A stretch of 62,618 nt of DNA, the filler included, from Globobulimina sp. (Eukaryota): NCBI GenBank assembly GCA_003354225.1. It is 21 parts of 21 records of this genome, joined end to end, with 100 filler letters (N's around TTAATTAATTAA, not from the genome) between each part and the next. Parts side by side here need not be neighbours in the genome. Positions count along the whole stretch, not along the records: positions 56,751 to 59,634 come from PIVH01004500.1; 20 more parts are not named here. One strand, written 5' to 3'. Made by a program: the position numbers and the translations under genes. This document shows positions 25,647 through 59,734 of this stretch, piece by piece. How positions within the stretch are numbered: position 1 is the stretch's first letter; each line of letters opens with the position of its first letter. The notes beneath the pieces were generated by a model, which saw nothing but the letters and a program-made list of their open reading frames with translations, ran no database searches and was not told the origin of the DNA.

Positions 25647-26675
25647 TTATCCAAATTCAGTAATATCGAGACGGGAACACACGTTACCGTCAAGATCATA
25701 TACTGAATTTGGATACAATGTTTTGTCCAAAAAAGAACTTATAGTGATTGGATAAATACATATTATATGTTGATTATTATAATTCCATAGCTTTTGATTT
25801 GTTTTATGGGATAAAAAATGTATCAAATCCATCAATTCATTAAATTCATCATATAATCCCAATCAAATTGCATCCATCAAATTCCATCCATCAAATTCCA
25901 TCCATACTAATTACATGATATCTTGCAGCTTGTTAGTGAACATGGAATAGTTCAAAAACTAACTAAGTTCAAAAACAGTTTTTTAATTTACATTTCTTTA
26001 ACCATGGATTCAAGTCAAAGTCCAAACCAATCCACCAATTCATCCAATACAACAAACAATTCATGTATGTTCTATTAGTATCCATTTATTATTATTTTTA
26101 TACAGAAAATACCAGGATTAGATATGGCGGGGCATGGTGCGTTATGCTGCTGTTTGTGTGGTTGGGGATGGGATTTGGGTGGATTTGGGTGGATTTAGGT
26201 GGTATTTGGGTGGTTTGGCGCTGGTATTTGGGTGGGCCTGGCATTTGGGTGGATTTAGGTGGGATTTGGGTGGATTTAGTGGTTGCGTTTGTGTGGTTGG
26301 TGCTGGTATTTGGGTGGTTGGGGATGGGATTTGTGGGGATTTAGGTGTGTTTGGGTGGCGTTTCTGTGGTTGTGGCTGGTATTTGTGTGGTTGGGGATGG
26401 GGTTTGTGTGGATTTTGGCTGTTATTTGGGTGGGTTGTGAGTGGTGTTTGTGTGGATTGTGGGTGTGATTTGTGTGAGTGTGATTGGCGTATTCGGATGC
26501 ATATTATGGGATATTTATATTTTTGTTATTATCCCATAATTCATCACATTTTTATGTTTTGTACAATATTTTATGTTTTTTGTTTGTGTTTTTGTTTCTA
26601 TTTTACTGCCACTAGGTCAGTAAACGGGTCAAAAAGAGTGGAGTAATGTCACTTTTACTGGCCTTTTTTGGATAA
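25647..26675. mobile_element. Putative non-autonomous element (MITE-like), longer copy with G/T-rich core
   Basis: Same 9-bp terminal inverted repeats; non-coding; internal G-rich minisatellite. Confidence 0.5.
26150..26470 (+). repeat. G/T-rich degenerate minisatellite (GGATTTGGGT and GTGTGGTTGGGGATGGG units)
   Basis: Direct reading; strong strand asymmetry; 10-nt units argue against coding. Confidence 0.85.
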
Positions 26676-38742: not shown

Positions 38743-39117
38743 NNNNNNNNNNNNNNNNNNNNNNNNNNNNNNNNNNNNNNNNNNNNTTAATTAATTAANN
38801 NNNNNNNNNNNNNNNNNNNNNNNNNNNNNNNNNNNNNNNNNNGATGAATCGTCGGATGATGATGATTGTGCAATGAATGTCATACATAATATTAATAACA
38901 ACGTTTTGATATTCATTAAAACAAATCCCATTGAGTTTGTCGGTTGCTTGTTGTTAGTTTGTACTTTAAACTCGACCGTTTCTTGAGCAGTGGTATGTTG
39001 ATTGGTGTTTACTTTTTGTTAGTTTGTATTTCAAACTCGACCGTACGAAAAAAGTTCAGTAAAAACTAATTGTTTCAAGAAAATATATCCTCCGGGTATA
39101 ATTATTAAATGTTAAAT

Positions 39118-41727
39118 TTACAAAACAAGTACTTTTTGTTGGGGTACATTTACATTAATTTGCATTTTGTCAGTTTTTAATCCACTTGATGCAACGGTTA
39201 ATATAACTTTATCACCTTTATTTTACATTGATTGTACTAAAACTCTTGCTTTACCATGAAATACAGAGCGTTGACTTGCTTTATCAGGTTCATGAGAGGC
39301 AGGATCGCCATTACTTACTCCTAATATAAATGCAACAGATTCATTATCAAGCGAGAAAGTGATTAAATTCTTTGAATTTGGTACAATTCGCATTTTATCA
39401 TCAACCACAAAAACATTTATTAATGCAACATCCTGGCCATCGCCAATTATCGTGTTATTCTCTGCAGTCTCACTATTATATGGATACTCCCATTCCAATA
39501 CAATACTTGTGGCTGAATCAGTTGTTTCTATTTTTGTGCTTGCCAATATCTTATTATTTACATCCAAACAATTACAACTTATCACACCTGCACTCCATCG
39601 CACATTTAATGCATAATATGCCAATGCGTCTACTTTTTGGCGTCCATTACTCACAGAATTATTATTTACAAACAACTCAACATATTCACAGTTTGTATAC
39701 ACACGCACTTGCTCTGGATTTGTATTTGTATCATTATTCCACGTATTGGGCATAATATATAATATTATCTCATCTGCAATATTGGTCCAAGCTGCCCTAT
39801 AATACCAATACATATCCTTTGGGAAACCGGCCATATCATTCACTCCAAAATGTGAATTGATATCAGGCCAACTATACGGAGTCGGTTCCCCTTTATAATC
39901 AAAACCTGTCCAATCAAACGAACCAATGATATACGAAGTTTCATCGACGGGCTTCCAACACCCATCAGGACACGGCACCGAATTCCAGGGACAATTCATA
40001 TAAGCAGAACAATGTCCAGTTGTGGACGACGACACATATTCATTTCTGTCTTGTGTACAGGAGCAGGACTCAGACGATATAATGGATTGAGTTGGATGTT
40101 GTTTGTGATAGGAATCCAAATCATAATTATAATTAGCACTCGCAAAGTCCAACACAGGGTTCAACCAACCGGCGCCTGCAATGGGTCGGTTATAGCCCCA
40201 TCCACTTTGATTATATATGCCATCATATTTTTGAATGATATTTTTAAACAGAACCACCACATTATCAATGCCTGAAGTGTCCTTTTGACAGCCGGCCTCA
40301 TTGCAAATGCTCCAAATAAGCACAGATGGATGATTCCGATCACGCAAAATCATATCTCTTTGATCGTCCATCCATTGCGGACTGTTGCCAAAATGTCGGT
40401 TTTCATCCCATATTAAAAATCCATATTCATCCGCAAAGGCCAACAGCTCCGGATTTGGTGGGTTATGAGACATTCGCCAAGCATTAGCACCCATATTCTT
40501 TAAGTGCTGCACTCGAAATCTATTTATTCGCTCAGGCGTCGCGATACCGGTACCACCAAAATCTTGATGATTACAAAAACCTTTGATTTTGACAGGCTTA
40601 TCATTGAGATATAAGCCTCGATTTACATCAAATACTGCTTTACGATAACCATAGCTTAACGACACAAAATCCATTTCATTATTTTGCGAATCGAAAATTG
40701 TTGCATTCACTCTGTACAATGCGGGACTTTGCACAGACCATAATTCTACGTTTGAATCAGACGATGACGGTCCCACTGAAACGGCTTTATTGGCGGCAAC
40801 AGCCACATTATTACTGGTTAATGTTTTTAATACATTGCCATCGGGTTTAATGATCTCAAATTTTAAGTTGACATTATAATCAATATTATATCGGTTATTT
40901 ATGGTTGCATTGATAATTAAATTGCCATCGCCAGTGCCATCCGCATGTACTGTGCTTACGGTTGCTGGCAAATATATACCTCCTGCTGGCTCGAAAAATA
41001 CTTTGCTGGCTTTGTTTAAAAATACGTTTCTATAAATACCACCGCCTTCATACCACCAACCTTATAATGACATTATTCATTAAATATAATATAATGAAGA
41101 TAATAATACATACCTTCTTCAGCTGTGGCATCCACAAATATTGACAATACATTATCGGAATTATCACCAAATTCCAACGAATCTGTGAATGCATCCAAGT
41201 AATAACGGAACGACGTATATCCACTTGAATGATTGCCTAAAAACTTTCCATTAATGAACGTGATGGAATTTCTATAAATACCATCAAAATCAATCCATAA
41301 TGTTGCATTTTTAACTTTCCATAATGTTGCATCCTCTCCTTTGCTTCCATACGATGTTGGTAGACTGAAATGTTTTCTATACCAACTGGTATTTTTTGGT
41401 AAATAGCCGTGAGAGCCAGAACGTGGTTCTTGTTCAGGTGTTGGATTTACAAAAGTACCATGCACAACAAAATCATGTGGTATATTTATTTTTGGCCATT
41501 TTGAATCATCAAAATTTTTTGTTGCTGCACTAAAATGACTTGGATCTGTATCAGGTGTATTGGGACGTGAATAGAATTGAGCCGCAGAATTTGATTTGCA
41601 GTCTGAAGTCCAACTAAAAGCGTTATAAATTGATATAATATTTCCAATTTCACATTGTCCGGATGACGTTATTTGGAAGAATGCGCACGTTGGGCTGGCA
41701 CAACACGCATTGGCACATCCATTGGTA
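39118..41727 (-). CDS. Glycoside hydrolase family 2 beta-galactosidase, 5' partial, with in-frame TAA near the 3' end
   Basis: FDDSKW..INIPHDF, WYRKHF, SGYTSF, WWYEGGGIYR, KGFCNHQD, RMSHNPP, RDRNHPS..WSICNE and WTGFDYKGEP; intron at about 41112-41061. Confidence 0.92.
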
Positions 41728-47797: not shown

Positions 47798-47857
47798 GGT
47801 TCTGGAGATTGGGGAATAAAGACTATGATTAGTACCGAAGGAGTAGTTATTGAATAA
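47798..47857 (+). CDS. 3' end of a bacterial gene
   Basis: GSGDWGIKTMISTEGVVIE-stop from the contig edge, followed by a strong hairpin. Confidence 0.4.
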   Translation, partial: GSGDWGIKTMISTEGVVIE

Positions 47858-47889
47858 CATGATTTAGGATATTTTTAAAATAGGAATGA

Positions 47890-47918
47890 ATAAGGCAGGT
47901 TATTATAACCTGCCTTAT
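47890..47918. terminator. Perfect 13-bp stem-loop, likely intrinsic terminator
   Basis: ATAAGGCAGGTTA-TTA-TAACCTGCCTTAT, about 30 bp after a stop codon. Confidence 0.65.
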
Positions 47919-48200
47919 CAGTTTCATTATCCGTGTTTTAGCACAAATATTTGATGTGACTTTTTAGATTCAGCTTTATTGGAGAATAGCAGGAATAGAG
48001 AATATAAGATCCTATTCAACTTACTACATACTAAAGTTTACTTGGTATAGAACTAAACCGCTTCGCGGCGGCTCCCACCTCAACGACGCAGTCATTTTTA
48101 GACACATTCAACCATTTAACTTTTCTTTTAAATCCCAAATAATATCATAAGTTCCGATATCTCCTCTATGTTTTATTAATCCAAAAAGAGGAGAACCAGT

Positions 48201-49073
48201 ATGACGCCGTTAAGACAAAAGATGATCAATGACATGAAGCTTCGTAGATTTGCCATTAGCACCCAGAACCTTTATATCCATGCAGTTAAAGGACTCGTAA
48301 AATATTATCACCGCTCTCCTGATCTCATCAGTGAAGAAGAAGCCCATTATTATTTGCTTTATCTTCAGGAAGAAAGAAAACTAGAGTGGGGAAGCTGTAA
48401 TTGTATGGCAGCAGGATTGAATTTTTTTTATAAAACAACACTGCAGTATGACAATATCCGATTCAAAATTCCTAAAAGAAAACAAACAAGAAAACTTCCC
48501 ACTATATTCAGTCGGCCTGATTTAAAAAGACTTTTTAAAGCAGCAGATACTTTAAGAAATCGCGTTATGCTTATCACCGCATATTCTGCCGGGTTGCGTT
48601 TAAGTGAACTTGTATCATTAAAGCCTGAACATATTGAATCGGGTCGTAAACTGATCAGGGTTGAACAGGGCAAAGGCAATAAGGACCGCTATACCCTGTT
48701 ATCTGATAAACTGCTAAAAGAATTAAAGATCTATTGGAAGCGGTATCATCCAAAAGAATATCTATTTTATCCTACAGGTAATCCACACAAGCCATTAGGC
48801 AAAAATATGGCTTATCGGGTGTTTATCAAGGCAAAGAAAAAAGCTGGACTTACTATTGGCAGAGGTATTCATTCGCTGAGGCATTCCTTTGCAACCCACC
48901 TTCTTGAAGACGGTGTTGATTTGTATTCAATAAAAACTTTTTTGGGGCATAGTTCTATCTCAACTACCATGATTTATTTACGCCTTACTGCAAATGGTAT
49001 CAAAAAGATAAAAAGCCCATTTGACAGGCATGGATCAGCGATTGTGGAGGTGCCGGATGGTAAAGATAGCTAA
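48201..49073 (+). CDS. Tyrosine recombinase / phage integrase family with N-terminal SAM-like domain
   Basis: AGLRLSE (R), GKGNKDR (K), HSLRHSFATHLLE (HxxR) and LGHSSISTTMIY (H, Y); RBS GAGGAG at 48188-48193. Confidence 0.96.
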   Translation: MTPLRQKMINDMKLRRFAISTQNLYIHAVKGLVKYYHRSPDLISEEEAHYYLLYLQEERKLEWGSCNCMAAGLNFFYKTTLQYDNIRFKIPKRKQTRKLPTIFSRPDLKRLFKAADTLRNRVMLITAYSAGLRLSELVSLKPEHIESGRKLIRVEQGKGNKDRYTLLSDKLLKELKIYWKRYHPKEYLFYPTGNPHKPLGKNMAYRVFIKAKKKAGLTIGRGIHSLRHSFATHLLEDGVDLYSIKTFLGHSSISTTMIYLRLTANGIKKIKSPFDRHGSAIVEVPDGKDS

Positions 49074-50295
49074 TTCAATCAGTGATAAAAAAACACCGGA
49101 GATGGCTGATATTTTTTGCAGTTATGGCAAAGCATACATTGAATCACATCCTATGCCCCTGGAACACTACAAAATCATGAATTCTATTGTAGTTTGTCGA
49201 ACCGCTGCATTGGGTGGCCATGTTGAAGTCTGCGATTCCTGCGGGAAAGAACAAAATTCTTACAACTCCTGTCGGAATCGGCATTGCCCTAAATGCCAGG
49301 CGCTTACTAAAGCAAGATGGATTGAAGCAAGGCAAGCAGAACTCCTACCAATTTCATATTTCCATAATGTATTTACCCTGCCACATGAACTCAATTTGAT
49401 CATTCTTATCAATAAGAAAATCATGCTGGATATTCTATTTAGGGCTGTATCAGCCACTTTGAAAGAATTTGCTCAAAATCCAAAATCCAGGTACAAGGAG
49501 GGGGGTAAAATTGGTTTTACTGCGATTCTTCACACCTGGGACCAAAAACTTCGTGACCATTTTCATCTTCACTGTGTGATACCAGCAGGATATCTCTCTC
49601 ATGACGGCAAGCGATGGATACATTCTAAAAAGAAATTTTTATTCCCAGTTAAAGCGCTATCAATGGTTTTTCGAGGTAAATTCGTGAAACTAATGGAAGA
49701 GGCATTCCATGACCTGATTTTCCCTGGCAAGATTGCTGATATTGGAACCAAAGCCGGGTTCAGAAAATTGAAAAAGCAATTATTCTCAAAAGATTGGGTT
49801 GTCTACTCGAAACAACCATTTGGCGGTCCTGAACAGGTGCTGGAATATTTAGGACGTTATGTGCACCGAGTCGCCATCTCAAATAATCGAATATTAGGCA
49901 TGGAAAACAACACGGTTACATTTTCTTATAAAGATCGTAAAAATGATGATGCGCTAAAAACCATGGTTCTTGATGCCAATGAATTTATCCGGCGTTTTCT
50001 TCTCCACGCTCTACCTAAAAGGTTTATGCGGATTCGTCATTGTGGACTTTTGGCAAACCGTTGCAAAAAAGGAAACATATTCAAATGTCGAAAGGTTCTA
50101 GGGCAGGATAATATACCTAATAATTTATCAGGTAAATCAGTAGAAGAGCTCATGTTGGAATTGACCGGCCAGGATATCTTTACATGTCCGTTCTGCAAAA
50201 TAGGAAAGTTGAATAAAACACTTAAAATCCCGGAACAAACTGGTCCTGGTTTTTTTGAACGATTGAATTTAACCACCATTAAGGACACATCATAG
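49057..50295 (+). CDS. IS91-family rolling-circle transposase (Zn-binding domain + Y2 HUH domain)
   Basis: CRTAALGG..CDSC..YNSCRNRHCPKC, VFTLP, HTW...HFHLH (HUH), YLGRY (Y2) and EFIRRFLLH.LP..F.RIRH.G. ATG 49057 has RBS GGAGGT and overlaps the integrase stop by 17 nt. Confidence 0.96.
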   Translation: MVKIANSISDKKTPEMADIFCSYGKAYIESHPMPLEHYKIMNSIVVCRTAALGGHVEVCDSCGKEQNSYNSCRNRHCPKCQALTKARWIEARQAELLPISYFHNVFTLPHELNLIILINKKIMLDILFRAVSATLKEFAQNPKSRYKEGGKIGFTAILHTWDQKLRDHFHLHCVIPAGYLSHDGKRWIHSKKKFLFPVKALSMVFRGKFVKLMEEAFHDLIFPGKIADIGTKAGFRKLKKQLFSKDWVVYSKQPFGGPEQVLEYLGRYVHRVAISNNRILGMENNTVTFSYKDRKNDDALKTMVLDANEFIRRFLLHALPKRFMRIRHCGLLANRCKKGNIFKCRKVLGQDNIPNNLSGKSVEELMLELTGQDIFTCPFCKIGKLNKTLKIPEQTGPGFFERLNLTTIKDTS

Positions 50296-50782
50296 ATCAA
50301 AAATGTTTTAGACTTGCGATTTTGATAGGTGCGTTATCAACGTAGGTGGATAGCTGCGCCTGCAACAGGCAAAGGTGACAAAAAAAGAAAAACAATGGTT
50401 AATAAATCAGCATTTAATATTAGAAAATTGAAAAATATAATACATTTTGTCATGAAAAAAGTTTTCTTTTTTAAAAACCCATCTAACAATCACAAACCCA
50501 GTCAATACAATCCCCATAGAAAGCCATCCAGCTAGTGTAACAGTTTTTCTTTAGGTTTAGTCCAATAAATTTAATCTATCATCTCTTAAGTATTAGGAAA
50601 ATTTAACTTTTGTTTCTCATGCTCGAATGAGTCTTATGATAACGGCTTTGGTAATAGATGAAAGATAAAATTCTATACATAANNNNNNNNNNNNNNNNNN
50701 NNNNNNNNNNNNNNNNNNNNNNNNNNTTAATTAATTAANNNNNNNNNNNNNNNNNNNNNNNNNNNNNNNNNNNNNNNNNNNN

Positions 50783-56380: not shown

Positions 56381-56750
56381 TTATTTGTACTAATTATTTT
56401 GCTGACTAATTATTTCATTTCTTTATAAGTCGCATGCCATTGATTCACACAACCTCAATGTTACTAATTAACTTAAGATTGCTGTGGCAATGCTGCCAGT
56501 TTGCTAATTAAAAAGAAAGTTTTATTTATGAATTATCGATGTGGACAAAATATTAAATTGTTTAATTTAATTTAAATTATTATTTGTTCAACCAAACAAA
56601 TAATCTTATCCCAAATAATAATACAATTCAGGAATTTCAGGGTTGGGTGGNNNNNNNNNNNNNNNNNNNNNNNNNNNNNNNNNNNNNNNNNNNNTTAATT
56701 AATTAANNNNNNNNNNNNNNNNNNNNNNNNNNNNNNNNNNNNNNNNNNNN

Positions 56751-56824
56751 ATCCCATATTTATAAGTTGTTGATAAATTGACAAAGAACCTTCTGTCAGT
56801 TCTGTTGAAGTGGTACTCCCCATA
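56751..56824 (-). CDS. 5' end of a probably myristoylated protein
   Basis: MGSTTSTELTEGSLSIYQQLINMG open to the contig edge. Confidence 0.4.
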
Positions 56825-56875
56825 ATTCCTTTGAGAATTGAGGGAAAGAAAACTTTACAAATTCTCACTCTAACC

Positions 56876-58462
56876 ATGCTGCGAAGACTTGTCGCTCGTT
56901 ATTCGCTGCATCATCCACAACATCAAACATACAGCACATTATGCAAAGAAGCAAACAAAGGCAACCTAATAGTTCAAAAATTTGGCGGAACGAGTTTAGG
57001 TTCACACGAAAAAATGCAAAAAGTGATAAATATCATTAAACAATTCAAGAATGAGAGTGATATTATTGTGGTGGTCTCTGCGTTGAGCAGTGATATTAAA
57101 TCGGAAGGAACAACCTCCAGATTGGTATTAGCGGCACAAGCAGCGGTCGAAAAAAAAGAATTCGAATCCTATTTGACACAAATTGAAGATACCCATCTCG
57201 ATATAATGTACACTCTGTTAAAGTCGCGCAATGCTCGCGAACAAATCAGAGCTGTCATATCCAACCAATTAAACGAAATCAGTACATTCTGCAGCTCTTT
57301 GTCTGTAATCCGCGAATTATCGCCACGTTCACACGACAAAATTATTGGTTGCGGCGAACGTATGGCCGCAGCACTGACCAGCGCTATTTTGAACGATCAA
57401 GGTTTTGATAGCAATTATGTTGACTTATCCAACATCTTTGACAATATTGACGCAAATAAACGTGACTTTGAGAAACTTATTAAAGCGGAAATTAAACAGA
57501 TAATAACAGAGGAAATAAATGCGGATAAAATCCCTGTTGTGACTGGTTTTTTTGGTCATGTCCATGGCGGCATTATCAATTCGATTGGGAGGGGTTATAC
57601 TGATTTGACCTCGGCGTTGTGTGCCGGCGCAATGAATGCAAAGTCATTGCAAGTCTGGAAAGAATCGGATGGGATATTTACGGGCAACCCAACCAAGGTA
57701 GAAAATGCTTGACTGTCATTACTATGTTATACTAATAGCAATATACAACAGATCGACGATGCTTATTTATTGTCGTCGGTGACGCCGGAAGAAGCTTCGG
57801 AGCTGACATGTTTTGGGAATGAAGTGTTACATCCCAACACTATGCGGTGTGCCATAAACGACAACATAGCCATTCAGATATTGAATACGTTTGAGCCGAA
57901 TGGTAGAGGAACGATAATAAATAAGGCGATAAACGCAAAAACAGAGAGTGGGCCGCATGGCATTATTGCGGTTTGCTCGAAGAAAGGGATAAATGTCATT
58001 AATTTGAGTGTTATTGAGCCGCATAGATATTTGGGCCATGTGTTTGAATTATTCAATAAACATAATGTTAAAATTGATTTGATATCGACATCAGTGACGA
58101 ATATGTCTGTAGCTATTCATGAGTCGGTGTCAATGCTGTCGATTAAGGATTTAATATATGATCTGGAGGAGTTTCATGGTTTGAATGGGAATATTCACTT
58201 AAATACGAATCGAAGCATTGTTAGTTGTATTGGTTCAGGAATGCATCATCAAATTGGTATTGCATCCAAAATATTTGCATGTTTAGCTCTGGAAAATATT
58301 AATATTGAAATGATATCACAAGGATCGTCAGAGATAAGCATAAGTGTTGTCATCCATTCTGATGACATGGATCAAGCAATCAAAGCAATACATAGAGATT
58401 ATATTGTTAGCGATGGACATCACCAAACGTTAACATCAATTGCTCAGTTTGAGGATGACTAA
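56876..58462 (+). CDS. lysC: Aspartokinase with two ACT domains and N-terminal presequence
   Basis: VQKFGGTS, EGTTSRL, GERMAA, GRGYTDLT, WKESDGIFTGNP, EVLHP, IDLISTS and EMISQGSSEISIS; GT-AG intron 57698-57751. Confidence 0.96.
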
Positions 58463-58604
58463 GTCCGTGACTTCAACAAAACTTCAATATCTAAGATCTC
58501 ACAGTTAGACTTGAAATAAAAAATAATGTACAAATCCGAAGTTCTGCAGTGTTTGTTCTGAAGTGCGAGGATTTTAAAGCGTGCAGTAGTTTGGGATATT
58601 CACA

Positions 58605-59634
58605 ATGATATCCAGACATTTGTGTAAGATTGGAAAGAGACATTTTAGTTACAGCGCAGCTCCAAATATAGCAATTGCAGGCAGCACAGGTGCAGTGGGT
58701 CAGGAATTGTTACAATTGATCGAGTCGAGAAATTTCCCGTATAATGATATCAAGTTTCTAGCCTCATCCAGATCTAAAGGACAAAAAACAAGATTCATGG
58801 GTAAAGATTATACAGTGGAAGAACTCGGAAACGATTCATTCAAAGACATAGATATTGCATTTTTTTCAGCTGGAGGTACGCAATCAAAACAATTTGCGTC
58901 CTCAGCCGTTAAATCTGGAGCTATTGTTATTGATAATTCATCCGCATTCCGAATGGATGAGAATATCCCATTGGTGATACCAGAGATAAACCCAATGCAA
59001 GCTTTGAATATATTGAAACAAGAAAGAAAAGGCGGTATAATGATGAACATTGCAGTATGGCCAATATATAAAAAAGTAGGTATTGATAGAATCATTGTAA
59101 GGTAGGCTCCAAATCATTTGTACAGATAACTCAACCAAATCTTACTTTTATTTTGCTGAACCAATCAAAAAATATGGTTATGTTACGTACAAATGATTGA
59201 TATATTGTGTATTAACTAAGTACCTATCAAGCAGCCAGCGGTTCGGGCTTAACTGCAATGAACGAATTAGAACAGCAAGCAGTGGATTGGGTGAATGGGG
59301 ATGCATTATGCGGATGGAATGGAAAACAATATATTTGGAACTTATTTTCACATAATTCTGATATTGATGCATTGAGTGGATACAACGAGGAGGAAATAAA
59401 AATGATCAATGAAACTAAAAAAATATTTGACGATAAGGCAATTAAGATAACGGCAACTTGTATTCGTGTACCTGTGTTAAGAGCACATTGCGAATCAATA
59501 AATTTGTCATTAAAGCATGGCATGGATGTGGATGAAGTGTATGAGTTGTTATCGAATGTTGAGGGAATATGCGTGGTTGATGATCGCGAGAAAAATAAAT
59601 TTCCGGAACCAATTGATGCGTCATTTGGTGATGA
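58605..59634 (+). CDS. asd: Aspartate-semialdehyde dehydrogenase (catalytic NPNC segment absent), 3' partial
   Basis: GSTGAVGQE, LASSRSKG, FFSAGG, IDNSSAFRMD..PLVIPEIN, STYQAASG, NLFSHN, GYNEEE.KM..ET and TCIRVPVLRAH; GT-AG intron 59102-59220. Confidence 0.95.
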
Positions 59635-59734
59635 NNNNNNNNNNNNNNNNNNNNNNNNNNNNNNNNNNNNNNNNNNNNTTAATTAATTAANNNNNNNNNN
59701 NNNNNNNNNNNNNNNNNNNNNNNNNNNNNNNNNN

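Follow-up and report, generated by a model that had tools for sequence, protein, structure and literature searches.

Gene content of the AK–ASD contig

The 62,618-nt stretch of DNA from Globobulimina sp. (GenBank assembly GCA_003354225.1) analysed here, hereafter the window, carries at positions 56751–59634 (PIVH01004500.1) a gene for aspartokinase (AK) followed by a gene for aspartate-semialdehyde dehydrogenase (ASD) whose catalytic loop is missing through a small in-frame deletion. The window is no stretch of chromosome; it consists of 21 unplaced small contigs of 2,884–2,891 nt, ordered by decreasing length and joined by 20 identical, regularly spaced artificial linkers (44 N + TTAATTAATTAA + 44 N), and any finding based on neighbourhood across these linkers is therefore void. 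AK and ASD are alone on their contig (2,884 nt, GC 0.375). The first-pass annotation, made from the sequence, had placed both genes within one contig, on the same strand and 142 bp apart, each with one GT–AG intron. The coordinates bear out strand and spacing, both introns are skipped at their exact borders in contigs of public runs, and the words "one contig" hold for those 2,884 nt, the rest of the window being other contigs.

Contigs (Logan) of four public runs, termed X1, X2, X6, and X8, were aligned to the AK–ASD contig. X1 is a DNA run; X2, X6, and X8 stem from three different studies, X2 under another organism label, and X6 and X8 are 4–5% diverged from the window. Logan contigs omit rare variants, and parts of the locus are uncovered (58505–58630 in X2 and approximately 58578–58624 in X1, 58997–59062 in X6, and 59037–59082 in X8); these gaps are therefore unusable for or against bridging of the two genes, dicistronic transcription, or an intact allele. 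The features of the locus are as follows.

56651..56750, no strand: artificial linker (44 N + TTAATTAATTAA + 44 N), left boundary of the AK–ASD contig
56862..56875, plus strand: probable 14-nt 5′ untranslated region (UTR) of AK; X2 and X6 contigs (records 10 and 15, respectively) both start at 56862
56876..57697, plus strand: AK exon 1, 274 codons, AA_kinase domain; ATG at 56876, profile matches
56876..56968, plus strand: AK extension, 31 residues before the VQKFGG core, 5 R/K and 1 D/E; aligns with the Nonionella stella N terminus
57698..57751, plus strand: AK intron, 54 nt, GT..AG, phase 0; skipped in X2, X6, and X8 contigs, kept in X1
57752..58462, plus strand: AK exon 2, 236 codons plus TAA (58460–58462); last part of the kinase domain, then both ACT domains
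58463..58604, plus strand: spacer of 142 nt between AK stop and ASD ATG, with AATAAA at 58515–58520
58470..58504, plus strand: segment of ~33 nt found in several contexts, AK 3′ UTR; alternative continuations in the runs
58605..59101, plus strand: ASD exon 1, NAD(P)-binding domain; ATG at 58605, in-frame stop upstream at 58587–58589
58605..58667, plus strand: ASD extension, 21 residues before the IAIAGSTG Rossmann start, 4 R/K and 0 D/E; contains R-H-F-S
59037..59042, plus strand: junction (at 59039/59040) of an in-frame 27-nt (9-codon) deletion that removes the N-P-N-C catalytic loop
59102..59220, plus strand: ASD intron, 119 nt, GT..AG, phase 2; skipped in X2 and X6 contigs, kept in X1
59221..59634, plus strand: ASD exon 2, dimerisation/catalytic domain; reading frame still open where the N run starts at 59635, ~65 codons short of the expected stop
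59635..59734, no strand: artificial linker, right boundary of the AK–ASD contig

Splicing was followed in the run contigs. The AK intron is skipped in three of the four runs (X2, X6, and X8) and the ASD intron in two (X2 and X6); X1 retains both in long gapless contigs (56915–58499 and 58625–59545). Skipping at exact borders indicates that the genes are real, expressed, and spliced as had been predicted. For AK, the X6 contig carries 20 adapter-like letters before 56862, X1 contigs extend further upstream, and 56876 is the first ATG past 56862; together with the shared start of the X2 and X6 contigs, this gives a weak hint of a transcript start near 56862, 14 nt ahead of the ATG.

A complete aspartokinase with two ACT domains

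Matches to family profiles, with E values from 1e-23 to 1e-34, upheld the earlier assignment of AK and ASD as enzymes of consecutive steps. The spliced AK product is 510 aa long. Exon 1 matched Pfam AA_kinase (PF00696) with E = 1.4e-28, NCBIfam TIGR00657 was matched by exon 1 (156.8 bits) and exon 2 (136.3 bits), and a C-terminal regulatory ACT pair was recognised through ACT_9 (E = 8e-30 over two stretches) together with ACT_7 and ACT. In an alignment of 158 homologues, AK keeps 81 of 84 near-invariant columns (at least 95% conserved), relatives missing 1–5, and the motifs retained include KFGGTS, GRGYTDL, and WKE.DG. The protein is colinear with N. stella AK, 386 of 507 aligned residues being identical. 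Most of the AK differences listed between run contigs and window are silent (27 of 36), and three of the nine non-synonymous ones fall within the first 16 codons. Judged by its sequence, AK is a complete, constrained, and monofunctional enzyme composed of a kinase domain and two regulatory ACT domains.

At position 58137 the window has T (Leu, AK codon 403), and C (Pro) is found in all four runs, including the DNA run X1. Homologues vary at this column, with Leu in Nonionella. The T is a private variant or an assembly base error.

An ASD gene without its catalytic loop

ASD was recognised by Semialdhyde_dh (PF01118, E = 1.7e-34) and PRK14874 (164.4 bits) on exon 1 and by Semialdhyde_dhC (PF02774, E = 1.4e-23) at profile positions 18–152 of 184, the gene being cut by the contig end. 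X2 record 14 extends ~240 nt past 59634, so this truncation belongs to the assembly and not to biology. As the first-pass annotation had proposed, ASD is of the plant/bacterial type: TIGR01296 (asd_B) scores 158 + 107 bits against 65 + 34 bits for TIGR00978, the profile of the fungal/archaeal type, and matches to solved structures reach E = 1e-32 for bacterial enzymes, compared with 1e-7 to 4e-4 for fungal ones.

P0001 and P0002, the two closest ASD relatives (exon 1 identities of 72 and 70%, respectively), have the sequence GGI-IANPNCSTI-MMN at the place where the window passes directly from GGI to MMN. The stretch with the catalytic cysteine is missing or replaced relative to solved bacterial ASDs and is also absent in the alignment to 14 relatives. 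Over 120 homologues, ASD misses 9 of 78 near-invariant columns (at least 95% conserved), eight of them in the loop and one elsewhere, whereas relatives miss 0–3 and the worst other row misses 8. Outside the deleted loop, 1 of 70 such columns therefore differs, and the active-site segment R-V-P-V...H in exon 2 (IRVPVLRAHCESINL) is intact as in relatives, with no near-invariant column missed there. The deletion is no assembly slip, because X1 record 8, in which introns are kept, and the spliced X2 record 14 are both gapless across the site; X6 and X8 have no contig over it and are hence uninformative either way.

ASD reduces aspartyl phosphate through a thioester formed on its active-site cysteine. 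With this mechanism and the loss of the cysteine loop, the encoded protein would be unable to act as an ASD, and this copy is very probably inactive. A working two-step module, within the clustered pathway that the first-pass annotation had proposed, is thus not borne out. If this copy is inactive, the step would have to be carried out by an intact allele or a second copy of the gene, or else by a partner organism. All four differences between the window and X2 within ASD are synonymous, for which we estimate a chance of ~0.4% on the assumption that roughly one random change in four is silent, and the terminal branch of the window ASD (0.28, compared with 0.12 and 0.19 in relatives) is not markedly long. 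A gene that is conserved yet loopless may reflect a very recent deletion, recombination with intact alleles, or a non-catalytic role.

A further cysteine was noted at 59450–59500, where Cys directly follows the conserved His (AHCES) in all ASDs of the eukaryote clade, that of the window included. Two bacterial rows in the alignment have Ser after this His (AHSES and SHSES).

Clade placement of AK and ASD

The best AK matches were those of N. stella (EukProt) and Elphidium margaritaceum, and the former, the nearest at 76–78% identity, is in agreement with the protist host that had been proposed. Further protist sequences followed, and after them those of Aplanochytrium, Mucochytrium, Hondaea, Monosiga, Salpingoeca, Amorphochlora, Bigelowiella, and Paulinella (47–62%); identities to SAR324/deltaproteobacterial AKs were 41–48%, and those to fungal Hom3 were 35–42%. 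In a quick IQ-TREE analysis of 74 rows, rooted at the midpoint, the window is paired with Nonionella (support 94), the Elphidium group joins next (100), and all of these belong to a protist clade of 42 rows (100, stem 0.79) with members from foraminifera, labyrinthulomycetes, chlorarachniophytes, and choanoflagellates. Opposite this clade are 10 fungal rows, two ichthyosporean rows, and bacteria including SAR324 and deltaproteobacteria. A resemblance of the kinase to fungal Hom3 had been suggested from two motifs; the motifs are indeed present, but AK belongs to a separate, fully supported protist clade, with the fungi across the split. AK is accordingly not placed in the fungal Hom3 group, the split having support of 100.

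Four AK sequences in these comparisons deserve separate mention. N. stella has two AKs in EukProt (P0121 and P0247), 78 and 69% identical to the window exon 1, and these may be either paralogues or products of mixed organisms in the transcriptome. In the pair P0251/P0349, an AK labelled Batrachochytrium salamandrivorans falls in the protist clade and not with the fungi, and one labelled Potamilus streckersoni, a mussel, falls among bacterial rows; contamination or transfer in the source assemblies is the likely explanation.

Relatives of ASD were searched with exon 1 among proteins of 290–2000 aa. In the resulting tree (55 rows), the window formed a group with P0001 and P0002 (support 99). This group is nested in a eukaryote clade of 24 rows (99), which holds all named eukaryotes (Hondaea, Aurantiochytrium, Thraustochytrium, Amorphochlora, and Gymnochlora) and is set off from Planctomycetes/Phycisphaerae and Firmicutes-like rows. 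The nearest bacterial groups of the two enzymes accordingly differ, being SAR324/deltaproteobacteria for AK and Planctomycetes/Phycisphaerae for ASD. In the two named genomes that have both genes, these are unlinked: in Hondaea, AK is on a contig of 127,913 nt and ASD on one of 414,345 nt, and in Amorphochlora the two contigs measure 1,046,765 and 1,247,722 nt, respectively. The contigs that encode P0001 and P0002 are 3,772 and 2,480 nt long, and neither length recurs among the AK matches listed (two sets of 120), a weak indication because exon 1 was the sole query. Unlinked genes and differing bacterial neighbours are evidence against transfer of an operon and for a lineage-specific juxtaposition, which supports the earlier suggestion that the pair was assembled secondarily. 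A metagenome scan with AK exon 1 gave 161 pattern matches and four confirmed loci, two of them AK-only contigs of ~1.8 kb; no ASD was found at any of the four by tblastn with one foraminifer-like ASD and one Hondaea ASD as queries.

N-terminal extensions

Both proteins begin with extensions ahead of their conserved folds, described in the first-pass annotation as Arg-containing, acid-free, and of mitochondrial presequence type. The N termini are present and basic as quoted; that of AK holds one acidic residue and is thus nearly acid-free. Bacterial counterparts are lacking, since bacterial AKs start 1–6 residues before the core and bacterial-side ASDs (27 rows) 3–11 residues before the Rossmann start. 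The presequence-like character stands, but as a trait of the whole clade and not one particular to this locus.

AK extensions were scored in 26 of 35 protist rows, the other nine being without a start Met or the anchor motif. They range from 12 to 96 aa, and R.[FYLM][SA] occurs in 20 of the 26, compared with none of seven fungal rows. Among the ASD rows of the eukaryote clade, 17 of 21 have extensions of at least 19 aa that are basic and contain 0–4 acidic residues, and R.[FYLM][SAN] is found in 14 of 21. A KIG(K/R)R.F stretch is common to the ASD extensions of the window, P0001, and P0002, and because of this sharing the ASD extension is taken to be translated and conserved.

Arg at −2 or −3 is a motif of the mitochondrial presequence cleavage type; the window ASD has R-H-F-S, and the window AK has no strict R.[FYLM][SA]. 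With a composition that is basic, hydroxylated, and poor in acidic residues, the extensions of AK and ASD would most likely act as mitochondrial import signals. This reading applies to the clade as a whole rather than to the AK–ASD locus.

The spacer between AK and ASD

In none of the four runs does a contig bridge AK and ASD, X1 and X2 being uncovered in parts of the spacer, and such contigs are unable to prove absence. The description of the locus as operon-like thus found no support. Within the spacer, X1 and X6 have loose ends at 58469/58470 and at 58500–58502, and the segment 58470–58504 continues into several other sequences. An X2 contig stops at 58504 and is followed by adapter-like letters. 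X1 depth is 25–40 over this segment against ~8 on its flanks and is raised over 58401–58594. The 35 nt of 58470–58504 are not repeated within the window with up to three mismatches allowed, and a search of the AK–ASD contig against Rfam returned no match at E values up to 1. For this segment, a short dispersed repeat and a shared 3′-end element are both candidates.

Interpretation of the locus

We consider it probable that AK and ASD are foraminiferal genes expressed independently of each other and brought together secondarily, that both carry the clade-typical and probably mitochondrial extensions, and that ASD has been disabled by the nine-codon deletion. They would then be two separate nuclear genes, each presumably with its own transcript, arranged head to tail within a small contig that is unplaced. 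By what is known of its family, AK would phosphorylate aspartate and be feedback-regulated through its ACT domains. The 9-residue in-frame deletion takes out exactly the cysteine loop of ASD, leaving a copy that is very probably inactive, and the basic, acid-poor extensions shared with protist orthologues would most likely import both proteins into mitochondria. The adjacency would represent a lineage-specific juxtaposition of two old eukaryotic genes, neither an operon nor a transferred bacterial unit.

Several points weigh against this interpretation. It is the assembly that sets the genes side by side; no contig of the four runs bridges them, and the segment with multiple contexts (58470–58504) sits within the very spacer that separates them. 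The strict R.[FYLM][SA] motif is lacking in the window AK and in two other foraminiferal AKs. Conservation of the rest of ASD, together with purely synonymous differences, is an odd pattern for a dead gene; the argument for lost activity leans on the textbook mechanism, and an intact ASD allele could exist. The run type of X2, X6, and X8 is unrecorded, X6 and X8 having been guessed to be RNA and X2 likewise from its intron-less contigs.

It seems to us rather unlikely that the pair is a selected, co-regulated mitochondrial two-gene cluster, with catalysis performed by an intact ASD allele and with adjacency conserved among foraminifera. Consecutive steps encoded on one strand 142 bp apart, expression and splicing of AK and ASD in the same runs, presequence-like N termini on both, and mostly synonymous variation in both would fit such a cluster, and Halocafeteria offers a precedent, with ask and ASADH in one cluster and mitochondrial signals predicted for them (PMC4987115). 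The sole ASD sequence found in DNA (X1 and the window) and in a spliced contig (X2) is, however, loopless, and AK and ASD are non-adjacent in both named relatives.

Selection could also have retained the cysteine-less ASD as a pseudoenzyme beside AK; after the loss of catalysis it might bind aspartyl phosphate or NADPH inside the mitochondrion, or help to regulate AK as its partner. We regard this as unlikely. In its favour are the expression and correct splicing of the gene, a single difference among 70 near-invariant columns outside the loop, a terminal branch (0.28) little longer than those of relatives (0.12 and 0.19), and differences between the two deletion-bearing sequences that are synonymous at four of four sites (the ~0.4% chance estimated above). 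Four sites are nevertheless a very small sample, and the same pattern would be expected if intact alleles recombined with this one or if the loop was lost very recently. Part of a core, namely one strand and the first residues of a helix, is deleted as well, from which the fold may suffer. If true, such an ASD would control the entry into aspartate-family amino acid synthesis in a novel manner.

An assembly chimera, in which AK and ASD from different loci were joined over a short repeat in the spacer, we hold to be improbable. Alternative continuations at 58469–58502 in X1 and X6, the raised X1 depth at 58401–58594, the want of a bridging run contig, and the place of this contig in a chain of very short unplaced contigs are what such a join might leave behind. 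Yet the shared segment of ~33 nt is easily spanned by ordinary reads, the assembler put both genes into one contig, and X1 contigs (records 6 and 7) lead on from the segment as far as 58577, in the part of the spacer nearer to ASD. Both genes are moreover foraminifer-like, AK by its named relative and ASD by its clade.

Acquisition of a bacterial ask–asd operon as a unit, with introns and presequences added later, is highly improbable: such operons exist, ASD is of bacterial type, and the ect–ask genes of Halocafeteria are close to bacterial ones in sequence (PMC4987115), but AK and ASD both fall inside broad eukaryotic clades, their nearest bacteria differ (SAR324/deltaproteobacteria and Planctomycetes/Phycisphaerae, respectively), and they are unlinked in Hondaea and Amorphochlora.

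Comparison with known systems

Bacteria, Actinobacteria among them, have ask(lysC)–asd operons, which match the window pair in enzymes, order, and strand. The bacterial operon is a single polycistronic transcript without introns or presequences, whereas each window gene has a spliceosomal intron and no record bridges the two; unlike the genes of such an operon, the window AK and ASD also share no common bacterial lineage.

In yeast, HOM3 and HOM2 (AK and ASD) are cytosolic, and in plants the aspartate pathway is plastidic. Fungal HOM3 resembles the window AK in being monofunctional, in its domain order, and in the motifs GRGYTDL and WKE.DGIFT. Fungal AKs differ in having no Arg-rich N termini and in falling on the other side of the fully supported split, and fungal ASD is of the asd_EA type. 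Closer likenesses were found in Hondaea fermentalgiana, Aurantiochytrium, Amorphochlora, and Gymnochlora, which share the AK and asd_B clades of the window as well as similar basic extensions. The ASDs of these labyrinthulomycetes and chlorarachniophytes retain the N-P-N-C loop, unlike that of the window.

The nearest published case is that of the stramenopile Halocafeteria seosinensis, which is reported to have a nuclear, intron-bearing ectA/ectB/ectC–ask cluster with ASADH three genes downstream, each of the encoded proteins being predicted to carry a mitochondrial signal (Harding et al. 2016, PMC4987115). Clustered ask and ASADH genes with predicted mitochondrial signals are thus already in print, in an ectoine context. 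Halocafeteria is like the window in being a heterotrophic protist with intron-bearing nuclear AK and ASD genes close together. There, the cluster is one for ectoine, ASADH is not an immediate neighbour, and ask is bacterial-like; in the window, AK belongs to a broad protist clade, the genes are immediate neighbours, no ect genes are visible on the 2.9-kb contig, and ASD is without its catalytic loop.

Thalassiosira pseudonana, a protist of the SAR (stramenopile–alveolate–rhizarian) group, likewise has nuclear AK and ASD genes, whose targeting was examined by prediction, AKs having bipartite plastid-type presequences and ASD no predicted targeting peptide (PMC4523565). The plastid type of those AKs differs from the mitochondrial look of the window extensions. 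A paper on horizontal gene transfer in Salpingoeca rosetta names asd and lysAC merely as flagged candidates. Our literature search found nothing on a foraminiferal AK or ASD or on an immediate AK–ASD pair in a eukaryote; among the titles listed, none concerned foraminiferal operons, and the papers on AK–ASD adjacency were all bacterial.

Foraminifera are major protists of sediments and reefs, and almost no amino acid metabolism has been described for them. The AK–ASD locus and its Nonionella and Elphidium orthologues indicate that they carry and express genes of the aspartate pathway. That foraminifera, labyrinthulomycetes, chlorarachniophytes, and choanoflagellates have such extensions in common points to mitochondria as the possible site of the first pathway steps in many heterotrophic protists, an arrangement that would follow neither the fungal cytosolic nor the plant plastid pattern and that, in the literature found, is stated for Halocafeteria only. 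A cysteine-less ASD that proved to be fixed and selected would be a rare pseudoenzyme in central amino acid synthesis; as merely an allele or a decaying copy, it would be an ordinary finding.

Other contigs of the window

The remaining contigs are unrelated to the AK–ASD contig and mostly encode eukaryotic domains (Sec7, PH, UBX, PI3/PI4 kinase, RING, SAP, and DEAD helicase). One, at 47798–50682, holds two long open reading frames (ORFs), for a phage-type integrase (48180–49070) and for an IS91-family transposase with a zinc-binding domain (49012–50292); this contig is bacterial in look, so non-eukaryotic contigs are present in the assembly. Another, at 38843–41727, is nearly filled by a minus-strand family-2 glycoside hydrolase in two ORFs (39226–41061 and 41076–41726), the split reflecting a frameshift, a short intron, or a stop. 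On one further small contig, positions 26145–26476 form a G/T-rich degenerate tandem array of ~330 nt with units such as TTTGGGTGG and ATTTAGGTGG.

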